Source of the DNA: Dictyostelium discoideum
Lineage: Eukaryota
Assembly (NCBI GenBank): GCA_000004695.1
Contig: CM000152.2
Location: forward strand, 3,872,001-3,936,000
DNA length: 64,000 nucleotides
Direction of reading: 5' to 3'
Made by a program: the position numbers and the translations under genes. A model generated the notes under the pieces. It was not told the origin of the DNA, did not search any database, and saw only the letters and a list, made by a program, of their open reading frames with translations. Below are positions 17,710 through 63,880 of the stretch, piece by piece (within the stretch, counting starts at the first letter, position 1; every line of letters begins with the position of its first letter).

Positions 17710-18076
17710 TTAAATACCACAACATGAACCATTTCCTCCACCCATACTTCCATGACCATGACCATGGCCACGATTACCAGATCCACGATTACTACCACAA
17801 GCACCGCTTGATCTAGAACCTCCAGTTAAATCTAATCCTAGACCTAAACCTAATCCAAGAATACTTCCACTTCCTCCACCACAACCGCCACCACATGCAA
17901 TTGAATTAGAACCCATACTTGTCCCACTACCAAACGAGGCAATACTGGATTTTGAACTTGTCATTGGACTTGAAATTGATGAGATTGATGCTTTTATTTA
18001 ATTATAAATTAATTAGTTTTAATTTTTTTTTTTTTAAAAAATAAAATATCATTAAATCCTTACAAAAAAGTGTCAT
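17710..18076 (-). CDS. hssA/2C/7E-family small Gly/Ser/Cys-rich protein, copy 1 (exon 1 at 18076-18064, exon 2 at 17990-17710); variant tail with HG repeats
   Basis: Exon 1 is ATGACACTTTTTT|GTAAGG. The AAAAG acceptor joins in phase 1 to ORF 17710..17964. The product is [43 protein letters not shown]...(GL)n...[19 protein letters not shown]. Confidence 0.7.
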
Positions 18077-19742: not shown

Positions 19743-20079
19743 AAAACTTTAATTTTTAAATAAAATTTCAATTATAAAATAAAAACCAAATTATAGTTGT
19801 TTTAAATTTTTTTTTTTTTTATAAAAATGAACATGAGTAATTTTTACTATCGAAAATTCATATCCTATTCCCCTAAATTGATCTCCATTTTTAAACATCA
19901 AAACAATATACAAAATTTTCAAATTAAGACAATAAGAAAAAAAAAAAAAATAATTTGAAAAAATAGTTTTTTATTTATTTGTTTTTTTTTATAATTTGGT
20001 AATCCACCAATTTTATTTTAAATAAAATTGTTTTATATTTATAGTAATTTGGTAATATATTATAGTTTTTTTAAATATT

Positions 20080-22493: not shown

Positions 22494-22883
22494 TTAAATA
22501 CCACAACATGGACCTCCACAACATGAACCATTTCCTCCACCCATACCTCCATTACCATTACCACGGTTACCACCATTACCACAAGCACCTCTTGATCTAG
22601 AACCACCAGTTAAATCTAAACCTAATCCTAAACCTAAACCTGAACCAAGAATACCACCACTTCCTCCACAACCACCACCACATGCAATAGAATTGGAGCC
22701 CATACTTGTTCCACTACCAAATGATGCAATACTTGATTTTGATCCAGACATTGAGGTTGACATAGATGAGATTGATGCTAATAATTAAATAATTAATTAA
22801 AATTATAAAATTAATATTTTATTTTATTTATAAATTTTTTTAACCAAAAATAAAATAATTTAATCCTTACAAAAGAGTGTCAT
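22494..22883 (-). CDS. hssA/2C/7E-family protein, copy 5 (B-type; exon 1 at 22883-22871, exon 2 at 22777-22494)
   Basis: Exon 1 is ATGACACTCTTTT|GTAAGG; ORF 22494..22763 extended upstream to the acceptor ATTATTAG. Confidence 0.7.
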
Positions 22884-23239
22884 TTTATTTTTTTTACTTT
22901 AAAATTTGATTTATTTGATGATTTAATTAATGATAGTAAAAAAAAAAAACTTTAAATTTATACTATTTTTTATAGGATAATTAAAATTAAATCATTTTTA
23001 TATTTTTTTTCTTCAAATTATAATTTGTAATTTAACCAATTTTTACAAATGTCAAAAAGTTTACCACAAAATTACAATAAAGCAAATTCTTTGATTTTTA
23101 CTTTTTATTTTTTTTATTTTTGAGGGTAAATACATTTTGGACAGTTTATATTAAAAAGGATATAATGAAATTTCTAATAATAACAAATTCGTATTTATTT
23201 AATTAACCCTCACAATCCACAAATTTTTTAAATATTTAG

Positions 23240-23281
<42 letters not shown>

Positions 23282-23919
23282 TAGAAAAAATAACAATACC
23301 ACCATTAAAAAAATTATTTGTTACCAAATTACAATTCCAGTAAAATTTAACTCAAGTGTGGGATGTTATGGCAATATTAATTAACAATACAATGAAATTT
23401 AACAATAATAAAATCTTAAACTGATATATCTCCTAAAATTAATTTATTAATTTAAAATCTTTTTTTATTTAATCAATCATTTTAAAAAAAGTTAAATTTA
23501 ATTTATAAAAAAAAGAATTATGATAATTATAAAAAACAGAATTTTAAATAAAAAAAAATTTTGATTAAATTTATTTAGTTTTTTAATATAATTGGAGCAT
23601 ATTTAGCACCAATGGCAACATTATAGCAGCTTGAGAAGGTGTATCGCTAGTGGTCTACAATAATGACCAGCATTGTGAGCAGGTGGATGGCATAAAAGCA
23701 CGAGTGTACCCAGAATAACTAACAGAATCAATGGTAGCACAAACCTAACCAATAAATTCTGAAAAAAAAAGAAAAAAAAAAGAAAAAAAAAAAATTAATT
23801 ACTATAGATTTTAATTATTTATTATTTTAAAATAACTTACCTATAATGATTTGGTACACATTTTTGTTGTTTTATATTTTGTTTTCTTTTTTAGTTGGTC
23901 ACATTCGATGTTTGAGGAG

Positions 23920-23952
<33 letters not shown>

Positions 23953-25026
23953 AAATAATTTTAAAATTGAAAAAAAAAAAAAAGGTGGGAAAAAAATGAA
24001 TTATTTTTTTTTTGGTTTTAGAATAGATAAACAGAGCACTCAAAAATATACAAAATGATATAAAATCTAAAAAAATGAATGTAACAATAATCGTATTATA
24101 GTAATTGTAAATTCTATTTTTTCCATTACATATTTAAAATAATATAAAAAAAAATAAATGGAATAAATCTTGATTTCTATAACCGATTTTATTTTTTTTT
24201 TTTTTTTTTTTGTATTCCATATTATTATTTTCTTGGGTACTTATTCCAAAAAGAAAATGATTTTGTTGGTGGGAAATATATTATTTATTATTCTTGTTAT
24301 TTTTGGAAAGAATAATAATATGGAATCATGAAAAAAAATTAATTAAAAAAAAAAAAAAAAAAATTCACACAAAAAACACAACTAATAAATCATCAATTAA
24401 TATACTTTAATATTGAAATGCCATGTTATTTTTTATAAAAAAATACAAAATTATTTTTCATTTCCACACCATCTCATTTTTTTTCTATATAAATGAGCCA
24501 AGATTGGATCATGTGATAAAAAAAAAATAAAAACAAAGAAAAAAATAAAAAAAAAATAAAAAAAATAAAAAATTAAAAAAAAAAAAAAAAAATGTAATAA
24601 TTAATACATTTCTTTATATATCTACTACTAAATACATAGTATTAATTATTTTTAAATTATATAAAATAAAAAATTAAAAAGCAAATAAACAAAACTTATT
24701 TTATTCCTTTAACATAAAAAACATTTAAAAAACTAAGAATTTATTTTTATTTTTCAATTTTATATAATTAATAGTATTTCCAATTGTTTCTCCCCAAGTT
24801 TAAAAACCTTTATTCGGTTACTCTTTATTCTACCTGGCTATTACTAATTCTTCTACTTTATCAAAACATGCTGAATCATTTGATGGTATCCAAAACTTTG
24901 CTATTGGACGACCTAATGTACTTTCAAACTCTCATATTTTTGTTCTATAACAATGGAAACATAGAAAAATTTTATGTAGGTTCCATCAGAAATTATATTA
25001 ATTTAATTTCTGTATTATTTATTTAG

Positions 25027-25087
<61 letters not shown>

Positions 25088-26058
25088 TAATGTAAATTTT
25101 ATTTAATTTTAATTTCTATTTTTTTATAATTTTTTTAGTAATTGTTTATTTTAATAGTAATATTAAAATTTGATGAATAAAAAAAAAAGACACATAATGT
25201 TTTACTCTTTAGAAAGGATGAATTTTTATTTTTTTTAATTTTTTATTTTTTATAAATTCACAATGAGACCCAGTATTAAATATAAAAATATGTTTTATTT
25301 TATTCTAACTTTAGATAAAAAAACAATGATGTTCCTATTTTAAGAAACAATGTTTTTATTATTTAATTTTTTTTTTTTTTTTTTATTTAGTGTTGTTATA
25401 TAAACATTTTTTTTATTATTTTATTTTAAAAAAAAAAAGCTTAACTGAAAATAGTTTTTCTAAAAATAGAATTTTTTGATCTGGCCAAAAATGAAAAATA
25501 ATTATATCATTACAATAAAATGGGAAAATAATGAGAAAACAATGGAGATTTGTTAAAATTAATAATAAAATTGTTTTTTTTTTTTTTTTTTTTTTTTTTA
25601 AGGTAATTCAAGTGTGGGAAGTTTTATATGGTTAAATTTACAGATAATGCAATACCACACAATTTTTTTTATTTTTTTATTTGGGTGTGTGATAAATAAA
25701 TAAAAAAATAAAAATAAAAAAAAAACAAATGGTGGTGATTGATTGTGTGCTGTTTTCTTAAAAAATAAATAAATAAAAAAAAAAATAAAAAAAAAATAAA
25801 AATAAAAAATATATTTTTTGAAATTACATATTGGTACAATGATATAAATAATTTTTTTTTTTCATTATCAATTTTATTTTTTTGTTCACTCAAAAACATC
25901 TCTATTTTATTATATAAAAGCTACACATTGTAAATCCAAAATTTCATTACCTTTCAAGTAAATATTATTTTTTATTTTAGTTTTAAAAATATATTTTATT
26001 AACCTTTTTTTATCTTTTTTTTCTTTTCTCTTTTTTTTTTTTTTTTTTTTTATAAAGA

Positions 26059-28113
26059 ATGGAAAACCCATTCAATTCCAATACTTATAATAATAATTAT
26101 AATAATACTAATTATAATAATAATAATAATTATTATTATAATAATAATAATAATTATAGTAATAATTATTATAATAATAATTATAATAATAATAATTTGA
26201 ATAATAATTATACCAGTTGTAGTAATCATCTCAACCTAACTCCTGAAGAATCTATGATTGATCAACCAAAGGAAAAAGAACAACCTATGCCTTTCTCTGC
26301 ACAAGACAGAACTTTGGCAGTTACTACACCGTCCAATCTAGCAATAGAATCTCAAGTTACCGATCTGTTGAGAGAGGATGAGGAACCATCTGCTGATGCA
26401 TCGCCAGCTACTACCTTTTCCATACAATTAATCGCCAAAGGAGGGCATGTTATTTACCTTAACCATCCAAATGCTCAAGTAGCTACTCTCAAGGTTCAAC
26501 TACCTGATACCGCACCATCCACTTTAGAATTACCATTACAAATAACTCCAGCAATAGACGTAAAGCAACTTGCAATATCGACCCATGATTACCAAAAAAA
26601 TCGGGTGAAGGTATGCGTACCTCGATTAGATCCTAAGGGTAAAGGATATGTACGTATTGAAGCATATGGTTTAAAAGGAGGATCAGGCGGTATAGAACTA
26701 GATACAGAGAAATTGATTACAGATATCGTATCAGGGTTCCATTTAGTAGGCATGCAGCCTTCTTCGGAAATGATCAATAGTTGGCGTCCTTTTTTAAGAG
26801 ACTTCTCTACTACACTCTCCAATATGACTCTGGACTTAAAGGATACCCCTTCTCCGATGTCAATTAATTCTTATGATCCAGGTAACTATCGCAGTACCTT
26901 TGAGCGAATAGCGAGTCATGCTACTAATAGAAGAATTACCCTCACACGATATGGGGCAGCCTACTTGCATATCGTGAGCCAAATAAGAACAAAGATCAAA
27001 CAACAGCAAAGCCTTCCCATTGACCCAGTTGAGTATCCTTCCCATAGCTATACGGTAAGCTTACAACCCAACTTATTGCATATGCTACCCTTGGTGGCCT
27101 CGCTGAATCATCTCTATGCTACGCCCATAGGAGGAGAATTTACCTTTGATGTAGGTAGTTTAATGCAGATAGCCCAGGTCGCTGTATGCTTTCATCCTGC
27201 TTTTTTAAATTTTGAAAATTCTAAAAGAATTACTTCTACTGGCATCAACCTAGATGATTTACTCACTGCTGCTTTACAAGAAACCACTTTGCAAGAGACT
27301 GCAAGAAAGCAAATGGATCAACAAGCACAAGAAAAGATAAAAAAAACAGTAGGTGAGGTAAGTGATTCGCTAGAAAACATAGAACTAGTCATTGAAGATG
27401 CGAAAGAACAATGGCAATCCTTGCATCCTCCCACAGATAACTACCCAGCATCTATGCAAGAAATCATCAAGGATTTGAAAGACATGCATACTTTACTAAC
27501 TAAAAAACTCACCATTTTAGATGATTTAGCCGGTGCAGATGAGAAAATTCGGGCTAAACGCAAAGAGCTGGTGGTAAAATCCACCAGGATGCAAGATGAA
27601 ATCGATGTCCTACTGCCTAAAATGCAGCAGGAACTGGAAAAGGTGAAGAGGGACGCAGTAGCACAAGAGTCTACCTTATTGGTTAGCCCCACAGGTAAAG
27701 GGATCCGTAATGACCGTGGAGGACAAGGTCATTACGGTGCATCGAGAGGTGGTCGCAAACATATGGGCATAGATTTTAGTTCAATAGTAGGACAGGATAT
27801 TGTAGCGCCTATATCTGGGAAAGTAGTCAATTTTAAAGGAGCTAGAACAAAGTATCCTATGTTACAACTATATCCATCAAAAAAGTTCACAGAATTTGAT
27901 TATCTACAAATGTTATATGTTCATCCTCCAGTTGGAATCAATATGGGAGCTAGCTATCAAGTATCTGTTGGAGATACTATTGGTATAGCGGCAAATTTAC
28001 AAGAATTAGGATACTCGGTAGAAGTGACACCACATATTCATTTAGAACTAAAAAAGAATGTACCTGGTAAAGATCCTATAAGTATTGACCCCACTAAATT
28101 TTTCTTCAACTAG
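26059..28113 (+). CDS. Intron-less 684-aa protein: a poly-N/Y leader, then a GC-shifted body with a coiled-coil region and a C-terminal M23 (LytM/lysostaphin-like) metallopeptidase domain; candidate horizontally acquired gene
   Basis: M23 signatures RKHMGIDFS (HxGxD) and TPHIHLE (HxH) flank the GKVVNFKGAR...VGDTIGI core. From about 26215 onward GC rises to roughly 40% against under 25% locally, and codons rare in Dictyostelium (CGG, GGG, CTG, GCG, ACC) appear. There are no introns. Internal ATGs at 26254 (MIDQPKE) and 26287 (MPFSAQ) could be the true start. Confidence 0.6.
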   Translation: MENPFNSNTYNNNYNNTNYNNNNNYYYNNNNNYSNNYYNNNYNNNNLNNNYTSCSNHLNLTPEESMIDQPKEKEQPMPFSAQDRTLAVTTPSNLAIESQVTDLLREDEEPSADASPATTFSIQLIAKGGHVIYLNHPNAQVATLKVQLPDTAPSTLELPLQITPAIDVKQLAISTHDYQKNRVKVCVPRLDPKGKGYVRIEAYGLKGGSGGIELDTEKLITDIVSGFHLVGMQPSSEMINSWRPFLRDFSTTLSNMTLDLKDTPSPMSINSYDPGNYRSTFERIASHATNRRITLTRYGAAYLHIVSQIRTKIKQQQSLPIDPVEYPSHSYTVSLQPNLLHMLPLVASLNHLYATPIGGEFTFDVGSLMQIAQVAVCFHPAFLNFENSKRITSTGINLDDLLTAALQETTLQETARKQMDQQAQEKIKKTVGEVSDSLENIELVIEDAKEQWQSLHPPTDNYPASMQEIIKDLKDMHTLLTKKLTILDDLAGADEKIRAKRKELVVKSTRMQDEIDVLLPKMQQELEKVKRDAVAQESTLLVSPTGKGIRNDRGGQGHYGASRGGRKHMGIDFSSIVGQDIVAPISGKVVNFKGARTKYPMLQLYPSKKFTEFDYLQMLYVHPPVGINMGASYQVSVGDTIGIAANLQELGYSVEVTPHIHLELKKNVPGKDPISIDPTKFFFN

Positions 28114-28381
28114 TAAACCTATGCCTCTGTTTTTCAATTAGTGATTTTTACTGTAGGAAATTCATATCTTAATCACTTTTACAATTTTTAGAACTTCAAA
28201 AAATAGACAAATTTTTTCAAATTAAGATAAAAAAAATAAAAAAAAATTAATTTAAAACAATAATTTTCTATTTATTTGTTTTTTTTTTTATAATTCGGTA
28301 ATTCACCAATTTTATATTAAATAAAATAGTATTACATTTATAGTAATTTGAATATATATTTTAATAATTTTTTAAAATATT

Positions 28382-28776
28382 TTAAATACCACAACATGGA
28401 CCTCCACAACATGAACCATTTCCTCCACCCATACCTCCATTACCATTGCCACGGTTACCACCATTACCACCACAAGCACCTCTAGATCTAGAACCACCAG
28501 TTAAATCTAAACCTAATCCTAAACCTAAACCTAAACCTGAACCAAGAATACCGCCACTTCCACCACAACCACCACCACATGCAATTGAATTTGAACCCAT
28601 ACCTGTTCCACTACCAAATGATGAAATACTGGATTTTGATCCAGACATTGAGGTTGACATTGATGAGATTGATGCTAATAATAACATATTAATTTATAAA
28701 AAATTAGTTTTTTATTTTATTTATAAATTATTTCAACTAAAAATAAAATAATTTTATCCTTACAAAAGAGTGTCAT
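28382..28776 (-). CDS. hssA/2C/7E-family protein, copy 6 (B-type; exon 1 at 28776-28764, exon 2 at 28674-28382)
   Basis: Exon 1 is ATGACACTCTTTT|GTAAGG. ORF 28382..28687 begins inside the intron. The plus-strand Pro-rich ORF 28446..28751 is its antisense artefact. Confidence 0.7.
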
Positions 28777-29980: not shown

Positions 29981-30908
29981 TTTATTTTATTTTATTTAAG
30001 TTTAGTTTATTTTTTTATTTTTTTATTAAATTAATAATATATTTATGGAATTAATAATAAAGTTTTTAATTTATTTATACATTTTTTTTTGAAATAATTA
30101 TTTAAATTGAATAATCACTTTTTATTAATTAAAAATAGTTTGTAATTTAACCTCAAGTCTACAAAGCCAAAAAGTTATCCACGAATTTCTAATAAATCAA
30201 TTCTGTAAGATTAAATCTTTTTACAAATTCTACATAAGAGAAAAAAGTTTAAACAATATAAAAAAATAAATTGAAATTTCTAAATGGAATGTATAAAACT
30301 TCATATAAAAACGAATTTGTTTATCACCCCAACCCACAAATATTTATTGAAAAATTGAAAATAGTGGTTGCAATTCAAAAAAAAAAAATCTTCATATGAT
30401 CTTTAACAATAACCCCATTTTTTAAACCTAAAAATAATTATCACCAACTTACATTTTTTTTTTTTTTATATTAAAAATAGACTTATATATAATTTAAAGA
30501 AGATAATAAAATTTTAATGAAAAAATTATAATGATTGGTATTATAAAAAAAAAACTATATCTTTTATTTTAAACTAAAATTTTAATGATAAAATCATAAA
30601 CCAAATTATGTTTTAAAATTATTCAATTAATAATTGTTTTTTTTTATAAAATTGAACATGATTGATTTTTTCTATAGAAGATTCGAATCTTTGTCCCCTT
30701 ATCAAATCTTAACTCTAAAAACATCAAAACAATATATCAATAGTTTTAAATTAAGATAATAGAAAATAATAAAATAAAATAATTTAAAACAATAATTTTT
30801 TATTTGTTTTTTTTTTTATAGTTCGGTAATTCATCAATTTTATATTAAATAAAATAGTATTACATTTATAGTAATGTTGAATAAATATTTGTAAATTTTT
30901 TTAATATT

Positions 30909-31326
30909 TTAAATACCACAACATGGGCCTCCACAACATGAACCATTTCCTCCACCCATACCTCCATTACCATTACCATTACCACGATTACCACCACAAG
31001 CACCTCTTGATCTAGAACCACCAGTTAAATCTAAACCTAATCCTAGACCTAAACCTAAACCTGAGCCAAGAATACCACCACTTCCACCACAACCACCACA
31101 TGCAATTGAATTTGAACCCATACTTGTTCCACTACCGAATGATGAAATACTGGATTTTGATCCAGACATTGAGGTTGACATTGATGAGATTGATGCTAAA
31201 AAATAATTTAAATTATAAAATTAGTATTTTATTTTATTATATAATATTTATATAATTATAAAATATTATGAAATATATAATTTCAACCATAAATAAAATA
31301 TTTTAATCCTTACAAAAGAGTGTCAT
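30909..31326 (-). CDS. hssA/2C/7E-family protein, copy 8 (B-type; exon 1 at 31326-31314, exon 2 at 31195-30909)
   Basis: Same architecture as the other copies; ORF 30909..31181. Confidence 0.7.
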
Positions 31327-58482: not shown

Positions 58483-58955
58483 GTATTGTTAAAAATAATA
58501 TCATGTTTTTTTAATTAATAACCACCAAATCTATTAATTTCAATTTTTTATTAATATTTGTGGATTGGGGTATTGGTGTGTTTGAGTGTGTGGTTAAAGA
58601 TAAACCAATTAGTTTTTATATTTTTATATATATAACTATTATGGGTATCATTAACTGGAAATTTCGTATTTTTAATATTTTGTAAACTGCTAAAAAAGTT
58701 TATTCATCTAATATGAACTCAAACTTAAAAATAAATATTATTTGAATTTGGTAGTTAATTTTTACTTTTTTACAATACTGGTTAAATTACAAGTTAATAT
58801 AAATGAAAAAGAGTGATTTATTTTTTATATTACTCAAAAATAAAAAGTATAAATTAAAATTTTTTTTTTTTTTTTCATTAATCAATTATTATATTTTTAA
58901 TAAAAAAAAATTAAAATAAATTAAAATAAATTAATATAAATTATATTAAAATAAA

Positions 58956-59315
58956 ATGACACTCTTTTGTAAGTATTTTTTTTTTATTATTTTTTAATTT
59001 AATAAATTAAAATAATTACTAATAATTTTTATAATTATAGCATCAATCTCATCAATTTCAAACCCAATGACAAGTTCAAAATCCAGTATTGCATCATTTG
59101 GTAGTGGAACAAGTATGAGTTCAAATTCAATTGCATGTGGTGGTGGTTGTGGAGGTGGAAGTGGTGGTATTCTTGGTTTAGGTTTAGGATTAGGATTAAA
59201 TTTATTTGGAGGTTCTGGATCAAGAGGTGCTTGTGGTGGTAATGGTAGATCTGGAAATCCTGCTCAAGGAGGAAATGGAGGTTCTTGTTGTGGAGGTCCA
59301 TGTTGTGGTATTTAA
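58956..59315 (+). CDS. hssA/2C/7E-family protein, plus-strand copy (exon 1 at 58956-58968, exon 2 at 59041-59315)
   Basis: Exon 1 is ATGACACTCTTTT|GTAAGT. The acceptor TAATTATAG joins in frame to ORF 59067..59315. Confidence 0.7.
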
Positions 59316-59429
59316 AATATCTTAAAAAATTTTAAAAAAAATATATATGTTCAAAAGTACTATAGATGTAATAGTACTTTATTAAAATAAAAATGGTTAT
59401 TTACCAGTTTATTCAAAACAAAAAAAAAT

Positions 59430-59462
<33 letters not shown>

Positions 59463-60247
59463 TTATTGTTTTTTATTTTTAATTTTTAAAATAAACTATT
59501 TCTACAATTGTTATTGTAATGGTCTCAATTTAAATTAATTTTATTAGTCTTATTTTTCATTGGTTTAATTGATATATGATTGACCTCATTGAAATACCCA
59601 CTTTTTTAATCCATTTTTGTGGTGATAATTAATTCATTATTAACCCCATTTTATAAAAAAAAAATCTAAACTTTTTTTAAAGTTTTTAAAATTATTATAG
59701 TTCATTTAATAATATCAATAATCAAAGAAATGCCTTCGGTTTTAATAAAAATAAAATAATAGTTATTTTTATTTTATTTTTATTAAAAAAACATAAAAGA
59801 AATTTGGGATGATATTAAAAGGGGGTATTGTTATAAATCTAAAGATGTTTTTTTATTATATTTCAAAAATAACACAAAATTATAATTTTTGTGGGCTGTG
59901 GGTAAAATATTTTAATTGATAAACAAATTCTTTTTATATTAATTGTATTACATTACCTTTTTTTTTTTTTTTTCTATTTTTATATTATTGGTAAAATGAA
60001 TAAAAAAGTATATTCATCTGATGAATATACTGAAACTTAAAATGTCATTTATTTGAAATTTTGGTAAACTTTTTGACATTGTAGTATTTTGGTTAAATTA
60101 CAAATTATTATTAAAAAAAGTGATTAAAAACAAAAATAAAAAATAAAAAAAAATAAAAAAAAAAAACAAGGATATAAATAAAAAACTTTTTAGCTTTTTA
60201 ATTAACAAATATTAATACTAAATTATAAAATAATTAAAAAATAAAAA

Positions 60248-60628
60248 ATGACACTTTTCTGTAAGGATTTTAATATTTTAAAACAAAAATCATAAAAAAA
60301 ACATTTTGTAAACTAATTTTTAAAAAAATAATGAAAACTAATAAATTAATTATTATTAATAGCATCAATCTCATCAATTTCAAACCCAATGACAAGTTCA
60401 AAATCTATAATAGCATCATTTGGTAGTGGAACTATTATGAGTTCAAATTCAATTGCATGTGGTAGTGGTTGTGGAGGTGGAAGAGGTGGTATTCTTGGTT
60501 TAGGTTTAGGATTAGGATTAAATTTATTTGGAGGTTCTAGAGGTGCTTGTGGTGGTAATGGTGGATCTGGAAATCCTGCTCAAGGAGGAAATGGTTCTTG
60601 TTGTGGAGGTCCATGTTGTGGTATTTAA
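60248..60628 (+). CDS. hssA/2C/7E-family protein, plus-strand copy (exon 1 at 60248-60260, exon 2 at 60363-60628)
   Basis: Exon 1 is ATGACACTTTTCT|GTAAGG. The acceptor TTATTAATAG joins in frame to ORF 60389..60628. Confidence 0.7.
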
Positions 60629-61474
60629 AATATTTAAAAATTATAAAATATATGCTCAAAATTACTATAAATGTAATACTTTATTTAATATAAAAATGGT
60701 GAATTACTAAAAATGTTTTAAATAAATTAATTTTTTTAATAATTTGTTTTTTTTTTTTTCTAAATCTTTTTTTTATATTAAATTAATTTTTATCCATATA
60801 TAAACAAATTAAACCAAATTGAACTCTTTTGTGATGAGTTATTAAAATTTAATTTTCAATGATGATTTAAAAAAAGTGATTTATTGTTTACATCAATTTA
60901 TGACCTTATTTTTTTAATTTGATTTATTTATATTTTTAATTACTATTTTATTCTGATAGTTTTAAAGATTATTTTCATTCCATATATATGTAAAATTAAT
61001 GATATAAAAAAAGAATTGTAAGTTGGTAAAAGTTATTTTTTTAACAGTTAGTGGTATTGTCATAAACGATCTTATTTTTTTTTTTCCCACAGTAAATTAT
61101 ATTTTTTTAATATATGTGGGTTGGGGGTATTATATTGCGATAATTGTTTTAATCTTACACTATAATTATTATTTTAATTTTATTATTATTTTTTTTAATT
61201 TAATAATTCTATTAATGAATAAACTGTTAAAAAAAGTATTATCATCTAATAAAAACACAAAACAAATAATATTAATTATTAAAATTTAATGTCAAACTTT
61301 ACATTATACTTTTTTGGTTAAATTACAAATTATTATTTATTGAAAATAGGTGATTTATTTTTTAAGGGTTTTTTTTTAAAAAAAAGCTATAAATAAAAAA
61401 AAAATAAAAAAAAAGAATTATTAATCATTAATCAGTAAAATATTAAATAATAAATTATAAAACTAAAAAATAAA

Positions 61475-61849
61475 ATGACACTTTTTTGTAAGGATTTATT
61501 TAATAATTTTAAGTTTATAAAAAAAAAAAAAAAAAGAAAACTAATTAATTTAAATTAAAAATTATAAGCATCAATCTCATCAATTTCAAATCCAATGACA
61601 AGTTCAAAATCCAGTATTGCATCATTTGGTAGTGGAACAAGTATGAGTTCAAATTCAAATGCCTGTGGCGGTGGTTGTGGAGGTGGAAATGGTGGTATTC
61701 TTGGTTTAGGTTTAGGTTTAGGATTAAATTTGTTTGGAGGTTCTAGATCAAGAGGTGCTTGTGGTGGTAATAATGGTGGATCTGGCAATCCTGGTAATGG
61801 TCCATTTTCAGGAGGCTCTTGTTGCGGAAGTCCATGTTGTGGTATTTAA
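61475..61849 (+). CDS. hssA/2C/7E-family protein, plus-strand copy (exon 1 at 61475-61487, exon 2 at 61569-61849)
   Basis: Exon 1 is ATGACACTTTTTT|GTAAGG. The acceptor ATTATAAG joins in frame to ORF 61595..61849. The minus-strand Pro-rich ORF 61555..61788 is its antisense artefact. Confidence 0.7.
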
Positions 61850-62449
61850 ATTATTAAAAAATTATAAAATATATGTTCAACATTACTATAAATGTAATAC
61901 TACTTTATTTAAAAATTGGCGAATTTCCAATTATATTAAAAAACAAAAATAAATAAAATCTTTTTATTTTTAAAAATTTTGTTTTAATTATCACAATACT
62001 GTTATTTTACAAAATGAAATAACTTTTTTGTTGGCATTGTTATAATGATTTTATTTTTTAAAACACCAAAAATTCTTTTTTTTATTTTATTATTGGGGTG
62101 GGGTGTGGGTTTTAGATTGTTAATGATAATCATTATCGTTTTTATTATTTAAAAATATTAAAATTAATTTTATAATTAATGAAAATTTTTTTTAATTTTC
62201 TAATAAATATATAAATTGTATAAAAAAGTATATTCATCTAATATAAAACCTGAAATGTAGAATATTAATTATTTTAATTTTTAGTTTAACTTTTTGACAT
62301 TATACTTTTTAGATATATTACAATAATTTTTATTTTAAAAAAGTGATTTATTTTTGCAATCCTTTAAAATAAGCTATAAATAAAATTTTTAATTTTAAAT
62401 ATTCTTCATCACTCATTAGTTAATTATTAAATTATAAATCAATAATAAA

Positions 62450-62822
62450 ATGACACTTTTTTGTAAGGACTTAATATTATTTAATAATTTATAGTTCTTA
62501 TAAAAAAATGAATACTAATAAATTTATAATTATTAATAGCATCAATCTCATCAATTTCAAATCCAATGACAAGCTCAAAATCCAGTATCCAATCATTTGG
62601 TAGTGGAACAAGTATGGGTTCAAATTCAATTGCATGTGGTGGTGAATGTCGAAGTGGGGTGGTATTCTTGGTATAGGATTAGGTTTAAGTATAGGATTAG
62701 GTTTTGGATTAGGTTTAACAGGGGGTTCTAGATCAAGAGGTGCTTGTGGTGGTAATAATGGTGTATCTGGAAATAATGGTAATGGAAGTATGGGAGGAAA
62801 TGGTTCATTTTGTGGTATTTAA
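62450..62822 (+). pseudogene. hssA/2C/7E-family copy with a frameshift (exon 1 at 62450-62462, exon 2 from 62540)
   Basis: Exon 1 and the acceptor are intact. A deletion inside the [12 protein letters not shown]-coding segment (here TGTCGAAGTGGGGTGGTATTCTTGG) brings a TAG into frame after ...[13 protein letters not shown]. The downstream Gly-rich tail (...GSMGGNGSFCGI*) is readable only in another frame. No ORF of 60 aa or more survives. Confidence 0.6.
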
Positions 62823-63485
62823 AATATTTAAAAATTATAAAATATATTCACAATTACTATAAATGTAGTAAACTTTAAAAATTGGAGAATTTCCAATTAA
62901 ATTTTAAAAAATAAAAATAAATAAATTTTATTATCAAAATACTATTATTATAACAAAATGAAATTTAACTATTGTTTAGTTTTTTTATTTTCTGACTAAT
63001 GATTCATAAAATCTCAAGTTTACTTTCATTCCTTCAATTTTTAAAATTAACTAGTTAAAATTCAATTTAAATGTTGATGGTATTGTTAAATTTGATTTTA
63101 GTTTAATTTTTTTAACCACTAAAAAATTCTTTTTTTTTTTTTTTTGTATTTAATAATTGTGGTGGGGTGGGGTTTTATATAATAATGATAATCGTTATCG
63201 TTTTTATTATTTTTAAAAATTAAAATTGATTTTATCATTTATAAAAATAATAACATCATTTTTCTAATAATGAATATACTATTAAAAAAGTATATTTGTT
63301 TAAAAAATACACATGAAACGTAGAATATTAATTATTATAATTTTACTTTTACTTTTTGACTTTATTTTGGCATTATGAACATTTCCCCAAAAAAAAAAGC
63401 TATAAATAAAAAAAAAAAAAAAAAAAATTAAATTTTTATAATCACTCATCAGTAAACTATTAAATTAAAAATCATCAAAAAATAA

Positions 63486-63880
63486 AATGACACTATTTGG
63501 TAAGTACTTATTTTATAATTTATATTTGAAGGGAAAAAAAAAAAAAAAAAAAAAAAAACTAGGAAACAAGGAAACTAATTAATTAATAAATATTAAAAGC
63601 ATCAATCTCATCAATTTCAAATCCATCAACAAGTTCAAAATCCAGTATCGTATCATTTGGTAGTGGAACAAGTATGGGTTCAAATTCAATTGCATGTGGT
63701 GGTTGTGGAGGTGGAAGTGGTGGTATTCTTGGTTCAGGTTTAGGTTTTGGTTTAGGATTAGGATTAAATTTAAGTGGAGGCTTTAGATCAAGAGGTGCAT
63801 GTCGTGGTAATAATGGTGGTTCTGGCTATCCTGGTAATGGAGGTATGGGTGGAGGAAATGGTTCATGTTGTGGTATTTAA
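63486..63880 (+). CDS. hssA/2C/7E-family protein, plus-strand copy (exon 1 at 63486-63498, exon 2 at 63600-63880)
   Basis: Exon 1 is ATGACACTATTTG|GTAAGT. The acceptor ATTAAAAG joins in frame to ORF 63674..63880. The product is [27 protein letters not shown]... Confidence 0.65.

Follow-up and report, generated by a model that had tools for sequence, protein, structure and literature searches.

A horizontally acquired gene joining a BAG-like module to an M23 peptidase module within the hssA array of Dictyostelium discoideum

The 64,000-nucleotide stretch of Dictyostelium discoideum DNA analysed here (the window) carries a tandem array of hssA genes on its minus strand, and one spacer of this array holds a plus-strand gene of a different kind. 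Members of the array lie at 17710, 18823, 20080, 21288 and 22494, and then at 28382, 29597 and 30909; their spacing of about 1.2 kb is broken by a single 5.9-kb interval, as the first-pass annotation had noted, and this interval contains the gene DDB_G0280935. The intron-less open reading frame (ORF) of about 2 kb described there proved to be one uninterrupted frame, and its product is 100% identical to DDB_G0280935 of strain AX4, a hypothetical protein on record on a 6.4-Mb contig under the UniRef name 'Peptidase M23 domain-containing'. We are highly confident that this gene was transferred from a bacterium and that its product combines an orphan N-terminal domain (N-domain), a BAG-like helical bundle and an M23 peptidase module.

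The composition of the frame changes sharply near position 26215, where a jump to about 40% guanine plus cytosine (GC) had been reported. The first 52 codons form the leader of host type that was described at first sight, with a TAA two codons 5' of its ATG; past it GC is 0.40 (0.51, 0.38 and 0.31 at codon positions 1, 2 and 3), and the two internal ATGs stand where they had been placed. The 1,896-nucleotide block is the GC maximum of the window, whose mean is 0.21, with 0.40 versus 0.33 for the runner-up (z = 3.5), and the runners-up are ordinary eukaryotic genes, namely a PH-kinase and a PX/dynamin-like protein. GC of the 12 other long ORFs in the window ranges from 0.20 to 0.34 and their third-position GC (GC3) from 0.09 to 0.30, mostly 0.09–0.20, against 0.31 here. 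The codon adaptation index, computed against those ORFs, is 0.41 for DDB_G0280935 and 0.52–0.78 for its neighbours, and each of the codons named as rare in this host (CGG, GGG, CTG, GCG, ACC and CCG) is enriched. The AAT/TAT repeat of the leader is open in two of its three frames, so an open leader is by itself no proof of translation.

Homology to the other hssA spacers stops at 23596 and restarts at 28137/28142, 24–29 nt past the stop codon, which gives an insertion of about 4.5 kb (23597–28136); its bacterial-looking part is only 26215–28113, and at most 23–28 nt behind the stop are unaccounted for. The foreign tail of some 90 nt without repeats (28114–28200) that had been proposed does not stand, as hssA-spacer homology has already returned within it. 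The AT-rich DNA 5' of the gene presumably contains its promoter, and scans of 22.7–28.5 kb with Rfam and for tRNAs found no RNA gene. Such borders bear on the suspicion that a bacterial-like composition raises by itself, that of an assembly artefact or contaminating bacterial DNA. Against it, the sequence is continuous, the foreign frame is in register with a host-type leader, the hssA spacer resumes almost directly behind it, the record of the protein comes from a 6.4-Mb contig, and eukaryotic genes surround the independent copies in two other species; we consider this explanation close to negligible. Coordinates of all features are collected in Table 1.

Table 1. Features of DDB_G0280935 and of the surrounding hssA spacer (positions within the window; aa, amino acid residues)
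Feature	Position	Strand	Remarks
Complete ORF	26059..28113	+	684 codons + stop; identical to DDB_G0280935
Host-type low-complexity leader rich in asparagine and tyrosine (N/Y), codons 1-52	26059..26214	+	GC 0.09; AAT/TAT-encoded
Start of foreign block, poorly conserved linker	26215..26418	+	GC shift; contains Cys54 (26218-26220) and ATGs at 26254 and 26287
Conserved N-terminal domain, mixed alpha/beta, aa 121-394	26419..27240	+	in bacteria fused to M23, phage-lysozyme or other C-termini
BAG-like domain, three long helices, aa 398-537	27250..27669	+	D488 at 27520-27522, R501 at 27559-27561
M23 (LytM/lysostaphin-fold) zinc peptidase, RHS-toxin/LECT2-like clade, aa 542-684	27682..28110	+	
M23 key residues	H568 27760-62; D572 27772-74; H622 27922-24; H659 28033-35; H661 28039-41	+	
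Flanking hssA-family gene, upstream side	22494..22763	-	
Flanking hssA-family gene, downstream side	28382..28687	-	
Upstream hssA spacer part	22765-23596		spacer homology ends at 23596
AT-rich DNA without counterpart in other hssA spacers	23597..26058		2.46 kb, between upstream spacer part and gene
Resumed hssA spacer, 3' junction of insertion	28137..28381		80% identical to 19833-20079 and 30663-30910

Protein searches place the foreign part of the gene among bacteria. With the whole ORF as query only two other dictyostelid proteins were returned, probably since candidates picked by words were taken up by the N/Y leader, and the search repeated without the leader gave bacterial homologues. In this leader-free search the best matches outside dictyostelids are full-length and bacterial, coming from a Candidatus Amoebophilus metagenome-assembled genome (MAG) and from metagenomic proteins; the three labelled here P0004, P0005 and P0006 share 39–45% identity over 97–99% of the query. 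P0005, recorded as 'MAG: M23 family metallopeptidase [Candidatus Amoebophilus sp.]' (43% identity, 97% coverage), is encoded on a 58-kb contig amid the bacterial genes FtsH, RsfS, LplA and Ank (ankyrin-repeat). A further word-based search run with the alignment added little. When 1.84 billion representatives were searched exhaustively with an HMMER profile, 580 relatives came out, among which the only eukaryotes named to species are P. violaceum and D. purpureum, joined by two unnamed EukProt entries. Aasi_0346 of A. asiaticus 5a2, which carries the UniProt name 'BAG domain-containing protein', shares the N-domain and the helical module.

GC is 0.376–0.388 and GC3 0.26–0.28 in the genes of the bacterial homologues; the amoeba copy cannot be told apart from them by these values and so shows no amelioration. 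Neighbour joining of the N-domains unites the three dictyostelids in a clade with 100% bootstrap, whose sister is the Amoebophilus MAG protein (74%). The horizontal acquisition proposed by the first-pass annotation is thus borne out: the gene is nested in a bacterial clade, its distribution in eukaryotes is patchy, its composition is donor-like and full-length homologues are bacterial, while a host-type leader and hssA spacers on both sides, all in one continuous sequence, place it within the host chromosome sequence. Amoebophilus-like Bacteroidota are obligate intracellular symbionts of amoebae, wild D. discoideum included. With Amoebophilus carried by 16% of wild D. discoideum clones (PMC8518690), the donor lineage can physically reach this host. 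It should be noted, however, that two scans of bacterial reference genomes yielded pattern matches and no tblastn-confirmed relative, not even in A. asiaticus; the donor taxonomy therefore rests on the name of one MAG and on Aasi_0346.

An AlphaFold2 model of residues 103–684 (mean predicted local distance difference test score of 90) consists of three modules. The roughly 480 residues upstream of the peptidase, at first described as lacking a recognisable domain, include a conserved N-domain of 270 residues which in bacteria is fused to several peptidoglycan hydrolases; no structural match to it was found in PDB. Nor is the segment next to the peptidase the coiled coil that it was taken for. 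In the model residues 398–537 form an antiparallel bundle of three helices resembling BAG domains, and Pfam BAG (PF02179) is the top family for 8 of the 8 members examined (best E-value 2e-6), with Aasi_0346 scoring 23.7 bits, above the curated cut-off of 23.4. A profile of the helical region alone matches the BAG domain of human BAG1 in PDB over its full length (E = 5e-4), and hhalign gives BAG 78% probability (E = 2e-5) compared with 0.7% for a reversed-sequence control. The shared signature 'LDDLxGxDExxRxKRKxLVxK...D' aligns with BAG1 helices 2–3. The BAG1 residues contacting Hsp70 are reportedly E212, D222, R237 and Q245 (attributed to Sondermann et al. 2001). D488 and R501 align with D222 and R237 and are conserved family-wide. 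Three observations count against the proposed Hsp70-binding bundle in the amoeba: the equivalent of E212 is Glu in bacterial members and Thr in D. discoideum and P. violaceum, that of Q245 is not conserved in the amoeba copy, and DDB_G0280935 itself scores 16.3 bits as a whole protein and 22.0 bits as an isolated region, both under the cut-off. Seven proteins outside the Amoebophilus-like subgroup (P0011, P0013, P0015, P0016, P0019, P0021 and P0030) are without the BAG-like signature and have a charged linker rich in E, R and K between N-domain and hydrolase; the missing signature indicates that the BAG module is specific to the subgroup which includes the dictyostelid copies. Among the top-ranked results of literature searches combining 'BAG domain' with endosymbiont or Legionella terms, no paper brought them together.

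The C-terminal module has the beta-sheet core of M23 peptidases, a family defined by the motifs H(x)nD and HxH and by an additional His about 30 residues before HxH (PMC9662197). Both zinc motifs that had been read from the sequence, HMGID and HIHLE, are present, although the canonical form of the first is HxxxD and not HxGxD as was stated. H568-M-G-I-D572 (27760–27774) aligns with the corresponding motif in StM23 9gy1 and in LECT2, H659-I-H661 (28033–28041) supplies HxH, and the extra catalytic His, equivalent to His260 of LytM, is H622 in 'LYVH', 37 residues before H659. The catalytic residues are thus intact. Some features argue against equating this module with an active enzyme. Its Pfam M23 (PF01551) score is 22.9 bits versus a gathering cut-off of 28.7, a threshold reached by P0026 and P0061 of the same clade; the residue in place of the extra His varies within the clade (H, D, N, G or V), being Val in the P. 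violaceum copy; and the nearest solved structure is vertebrate LECT2, which is a non-enzyme (PMC9662197).

The partners of the N-domain in bacteria are M23 modules, phage-type lysozyme (Phage_lysozyme; P0015, P0019) or domains showing the pattern H...D/HxH (P0011, P0013, P0030); all identifiable C-termini of the family are cell-wall hydrolases. RHS-repeat proteins of 1,267–2,490 aa have this M23 module at their extreme C-terminus, and in P0008 it comes after the end of the RHS core, which marks it as a polymorphic-toxin cassette. Directly 3' of the homologue in two bacterial loci lies a small ORF with a lipoprotein signal (L001 2137-2910 and L006 2178-2375). The two are weakly similar (E = 8e-7 over 54 aa, signal peptides included) and, from their position and sequence, are candidates for proteins giving immunity to the hydrolase; no match to either was found in Pfam or NCBIfam, and the window contains no counterpart. 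NCBIfam gave no meaningful match for DDB_G0280935, its bacterial homologues or the putative immunity ORF. Aasi_0346 (L004 8001-9884) has a lipobox, the N-domain and the BAG module, and ends about 55 residues after the bundle without a hydrolase domain; it lies amid transposase (rve) fragments and hence may be a truncated copy.

Bacterial members of the family begin with a signal peptide plus lipobox, for example 'LLxSQLLTSCG'. We compared the sequences at this point by eye, without a scored alignment: 'TSCSNHLNLTPEE' in D. discoideum, 'TTSCSGNFGVPTQQE' in Aasi_0346 and 'NNSCGFEETQES' (kept) in D. purpureum. Cys54, within 'TSCSNHLNLTPEE', matches the lipobox Cys of bacterial homologues, and by this reading the amoeba copy has lost its export signal. 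It looks as if the foreign block begins at the remnant of the lipobox cysteine and the hydrophobic signal sequence was replaced by sequence of host type. None of the candidate start codons (26059, 26254 and 26287) is followed by a signal peptide or a transmembrane segment. With the signal peptide lost the protein is predicted to be cytosolic, and this predicted location weakens the earlier suggestion that a bacterivorous amoeba uses the enzyme to kill or digest prey. A secreted or phagosomal peptidoglycan hydrolase would suit such a host, the more so with a complete M23 module from a clade that serves bacteria as an RHS C-terminal toxin. Yet it is the bacterial export signal that was specifically lost, and the BAG-like module points to Hsp70, a cytosolic partner; we regard prey digestion as very unlikely.

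Copies of the gene were found in both other dictyostelids, at unrelated loci. That of P. violaceum is intron-less, 70% identical, has GC of 0.405 and adjoins unrelated genes. The D. purpureum copy (DICPUDRAFT_81734; L003 10001-12017) has GC of 0.41 in flanks of about 0.20, with an annotated intron in the 5' leader only, and shares the N-domain and BAG module while ending in a different C-terminal domain. This domain gave no Pfam or PDB match, its similarity to P0011, P0013 and P0030 being only local, 'H..NGARA[IV]DI'. Its sequence, 'GAHMEDNGARAVDI...HYHFQL', carries the local motif present in the same three bacterial proteins, and resembles the signature of LAS/M15-type zinc peptidases (H...D/HxH), a reading that is unconfirmed. 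The three loci are non-syntenic, all copies have GC of about 0.40, and eukaryotic genes lie on either side of those in P. violaceum and D. purpureum.

Divergence between the copies differs from module to module. The N-domains of D. discoideum and P. violaceum share 84% nucleotide identity, with synonymous divergence (dS) of 0.37; dS between the two species rises to 0.97 in the BAG region and to 1.4 in the M23 module, where amino-acid identity is 56%. The M23 module of D. discoideum is 74% identical to that of the bacterial metagenome protein P0004, with which it groups at 98% bootstrap, while the P. violaceum module groups with metagenome protein P0012 and EukProt protein P0018. The N-domain tree has the topology ((D. 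discoideum, P. violaceum), D. purpureum), whereas the accepted species tree is ((D. discoideum, D. purpureum), P. violaceum). Could the gene have entered the common ancestor of Dictyostelium and P. violaceum once, long ago, and then have descended vertically, with a later swap of the D. purpureum C-terminus? The monophyly of the three N-domains (100% bootstrap) would fit, and so would the precedent of the classical D. discoideum genes acquired by horizontal gene transfer (HGT), all of which predate the radiation of group 4 (PMC3188802). However, an N-domain dS of merely 0.37 is hard to reconcile with lineages separated at least as long as D. discoideum and D. purpureum, which split about 400 million years ago (PMC3188802), no copy shows amelioration, synteny is lacking, and the two M23 modules have different closest relatives, at odds with common descent. 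On these grounds (lack of synteny, low dS, unameliorated composition and conflict between modules) an ancient vertical gene was rejected, and we think such a history still less credible than prey digestion. The same four observations make several separate and fairly recent transfers from related symbionts, with shuffled C-terminal cassettes, the most likely history as read from the sequences. Among the EukProt family members, P0014 ('gene3854-4805_t') and P0018 ('gene54-80_t') may represent symbiont contamination. P0018, with its shortened N-domain and lost HxH motif, looks like a decaying copy. Both entries hint at further transfers in another eukaryote.

What the gene does in the amoeba is more difficult to say, and the following scheme was put together from sequence and predicted structure. 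DDB_G0280935 is a nuclear copy of an effector-type gene captured from Amoebophilus-like Bacteroidota, in which the protein is a lipoprotein consisting of signal peptide and lipobox, a disordered linker, the N-domain, usually a BAG-like bundle and an exchangeable peptidoglycan hydrolase. The foreign DNA landed in the hssA spacer and lost the signal peptide; the AAT/TAT-encoded N/Y leader would now provide the start, and an upstream region of host type would drive expression. The product would then be a cytosolic protein of three modules, with the orphan N-domain at one end, a BAG-like bundle that may dock on the nucleotide-binding domain of Hsp70/Hsc70, and a complete M23 zinc endopeptidase that may cut the peptide cross-links of peptidoglycan. 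Its possible targets are bacteria exposed to the host cytoplasm or residing in host-derived compartments, such as Amoebophilus, Chlamydiae and escaped pathogens. The role proposed is that of a captured antibacterial effector for the control of symbionts and pathogens, not of phagosomal prey digestion. We put this role forward tentatively, at somewhat short of an even chance, and the favoured explanation as a whole, a symbiont-derived gene that acts in the amoeba as an antibacterial effector, seems to us evenly poised.

The strongest competing view takes the gene for a young neutral passenger: recent symbiont DNA which is unexpressed or unused and still open only because AT-biased mutation in the host has had too little time to disrupt it. 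Several facts sit well with this and speak against a working effector. The composition equals that of bacterial homologues with no amelioration, and youth alone could explain why the ORF is intact; the leader consists of a triplet repeat, two of whose frames are open by construction, and triplet repeats accumulate in weakly constrained genes (PMC3188802); a relative in another eukaryote dataset, P0018, is apparently degenerate; and the identifiers of DDB_G0280935 do not occur in the searchable literature. The ratio of nonsynonymous to synonymous divergence (dN/dS) between D. discoideum and P. violaceum, 0.33, is itself ambiguous: if the transfers were independent, most substitutions arose in the donors, and the value may reflect selection in bacteria rather than in amoebae, which would make it compatible with a neutral passenger. 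On the other hand, 632 foreign codons have stayed open where TAA, TAG and TGA arise easily, the full M23 catalytic set is preserved, intact copies are present in three dictyostelids, and the signal peptide was removed precisely at the lipobox in two species; dN/dS, though possibly of donor origin, also points away from neutrality. We thus take the neutral passenger seriously, while holding it rather unlikely.

Two further observations concern the hssA array. At about 23600–23770, in the AT-rich DNA at the upstream border of the insertion, GC rises to a moderate level over a 170-nt island; its minus strand has a hydrophobic ORF of 43 codons (23621–23752), and no Pfam, Rfam or tRNA match was found. 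Inverted hssA-spacer sequence occurs at no fewer than five places, that is at least at 58738–59053, 60048–60375, 61248–61581, 62269–62552 and 63477–63612, so that the right end of the window (about 58700–63600) may hold another hssA array, oriented the opposite way.

The Amoebophilus symbiosis in wild isolates of D. discoideum was recognised only in 2021, and the gene offers a concrete, datable trace of gene flow from this obligate endosymbiont lineage into the nuclear genome of the main social-amoeba model. Since the transfer looks recent and recurrent, unlike that of the classical Dictyostelium HGT genes, natural populations could serve to study its dynamics. Should the protein prove active, it would be a peptidoglycan hydrolase in the cytosol of a eukaryote with a link to the Hsp70 system and a new host route against intracellular bacteria, and the idea can be tested directly in a genetically tractable organism. 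On the bacterial side, the analysis defines an uncharacterised effector family in which an orphan N-domain is combined with exchangeable cell-wall hydrolases and often also with a BAG-like module, and it places an RHS-toxin M23 cassette beside vertebrate LECT2. The boldest version of these ideas joins them all: an effector architecture of the Amoebophilus lineage undescribed so far (lipoprotein, orphan N-domain, BAG domain derived from eukaryotes, interchangeable hydrolase) would have been captured by social amoebae repeatedly, each time independently, and its product in D. discoideum would be a bacteriolytic enzyme, cytosolic and coupled to Hsp70, that polices endosymbionts. This combination we judge distinctly unlikely to hold in full; if it did, the amoeba would have stolen an innate-immune gene from the very symbiont lineage that the gene targets, and vertebrate LECT2 would descend from the bacterial RHS-toxin M23 clade.

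The presence of a bacterial cell-wall hydrolase gene in a eukaryote is a known phenomenon; what is unusual here is the BAG-like module, the orphan N-domain, the endosymbiont donor, recurrent transfer and the affinity to LECT2. As a member of the M23 family (LytM, lysostaphin, EnvC; PF01551/MEROPS M23B), the C-terminal module has the beta-sheet core, HxxxD, HxH and the extra His, and differs from typical members in falling below the Pfam cut-off. With LECT2 it has in common the sequence preceding the first motif, 'NDxGGxGHYGAxRGxRxHxGxD', and unlike LECT2 it retains the catalytic His. The helical module resembles BAG proteins (BAG1, PF02179), the eukaryotic nucleotide-exchange factors of Hsp70, in being a three-helix bundle of about 110–140 aa with the helix 2–3 signature. 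Unlike them it is found joined to a peptidoglycan hydrolase, in lipoproteins of bacteria and in a gene that was transferred, and its binding to Hsp70 is putative.

The bacterial relatives are built like the APD1/APD2 lipoprotein effectors of Amoebophilus and like polymorphic toxins (PMC3482391), with a signal peptide and lipobox, a constant N-domain and variable enzymatic C-termini, and their M23 cassette is common to RHS toxins. Lipobox-anchored Amoebophilus effectors with constant N-termini and variable C-termini were described by Zhang et al. 2012 (PMC3482391). The likeness is one of architecture. APD1/APD2 are expanded in A. asiaticus 5a2, whereas the N-domain occurs in only one 5a2 protein, and the identifiable C-termini of the present family target peptidoglycan and not host proteins.

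Like the 16 D. discoideum genes classically listed as HGT candidates (Eichinger 2005; Sucgang 2011), DDB_G0280935 is a bacterial gene resident in the nuclear genome, and it is absent from the list of these candidates (PMC3188802 Table 2). The classical genes have D. purpureum orthologues that are 90–100% similar and they predate the group 4 radiation, in contrast to DDB_G0280935, which is unameliorated, non-syntenic and mosaic. The closest functional parallels proposed are tick Dae2, a domesticated antibacterial effector (bioRxiv 10.1101/2020.04.10.036376), and aphid amiD/ldcA/rlpA, which act on symbiont peptidoglycan (PMC8689515, PMC9116674). In all these cases a bacterial gene for a toxin or enzyme that cleaves peptidoglycan moved, with no accompanying immunity gene, into the nuclear genome of a eukaryote that has bacteria living with it, and control of these bacteria is the proposed use. 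The social amoeba gene differs from them in encoding an M23 metallopeptidase instead of a Tae amidase, AmiD or LdcA, in having an orphan N-domain and a BAG-like bundle and no secretion signal, and in a role that is predicted from sequence; its donor belongs to the host's own endosymbiont lineage, and transfer appears to have happened repeatedly, in three social amoebae.

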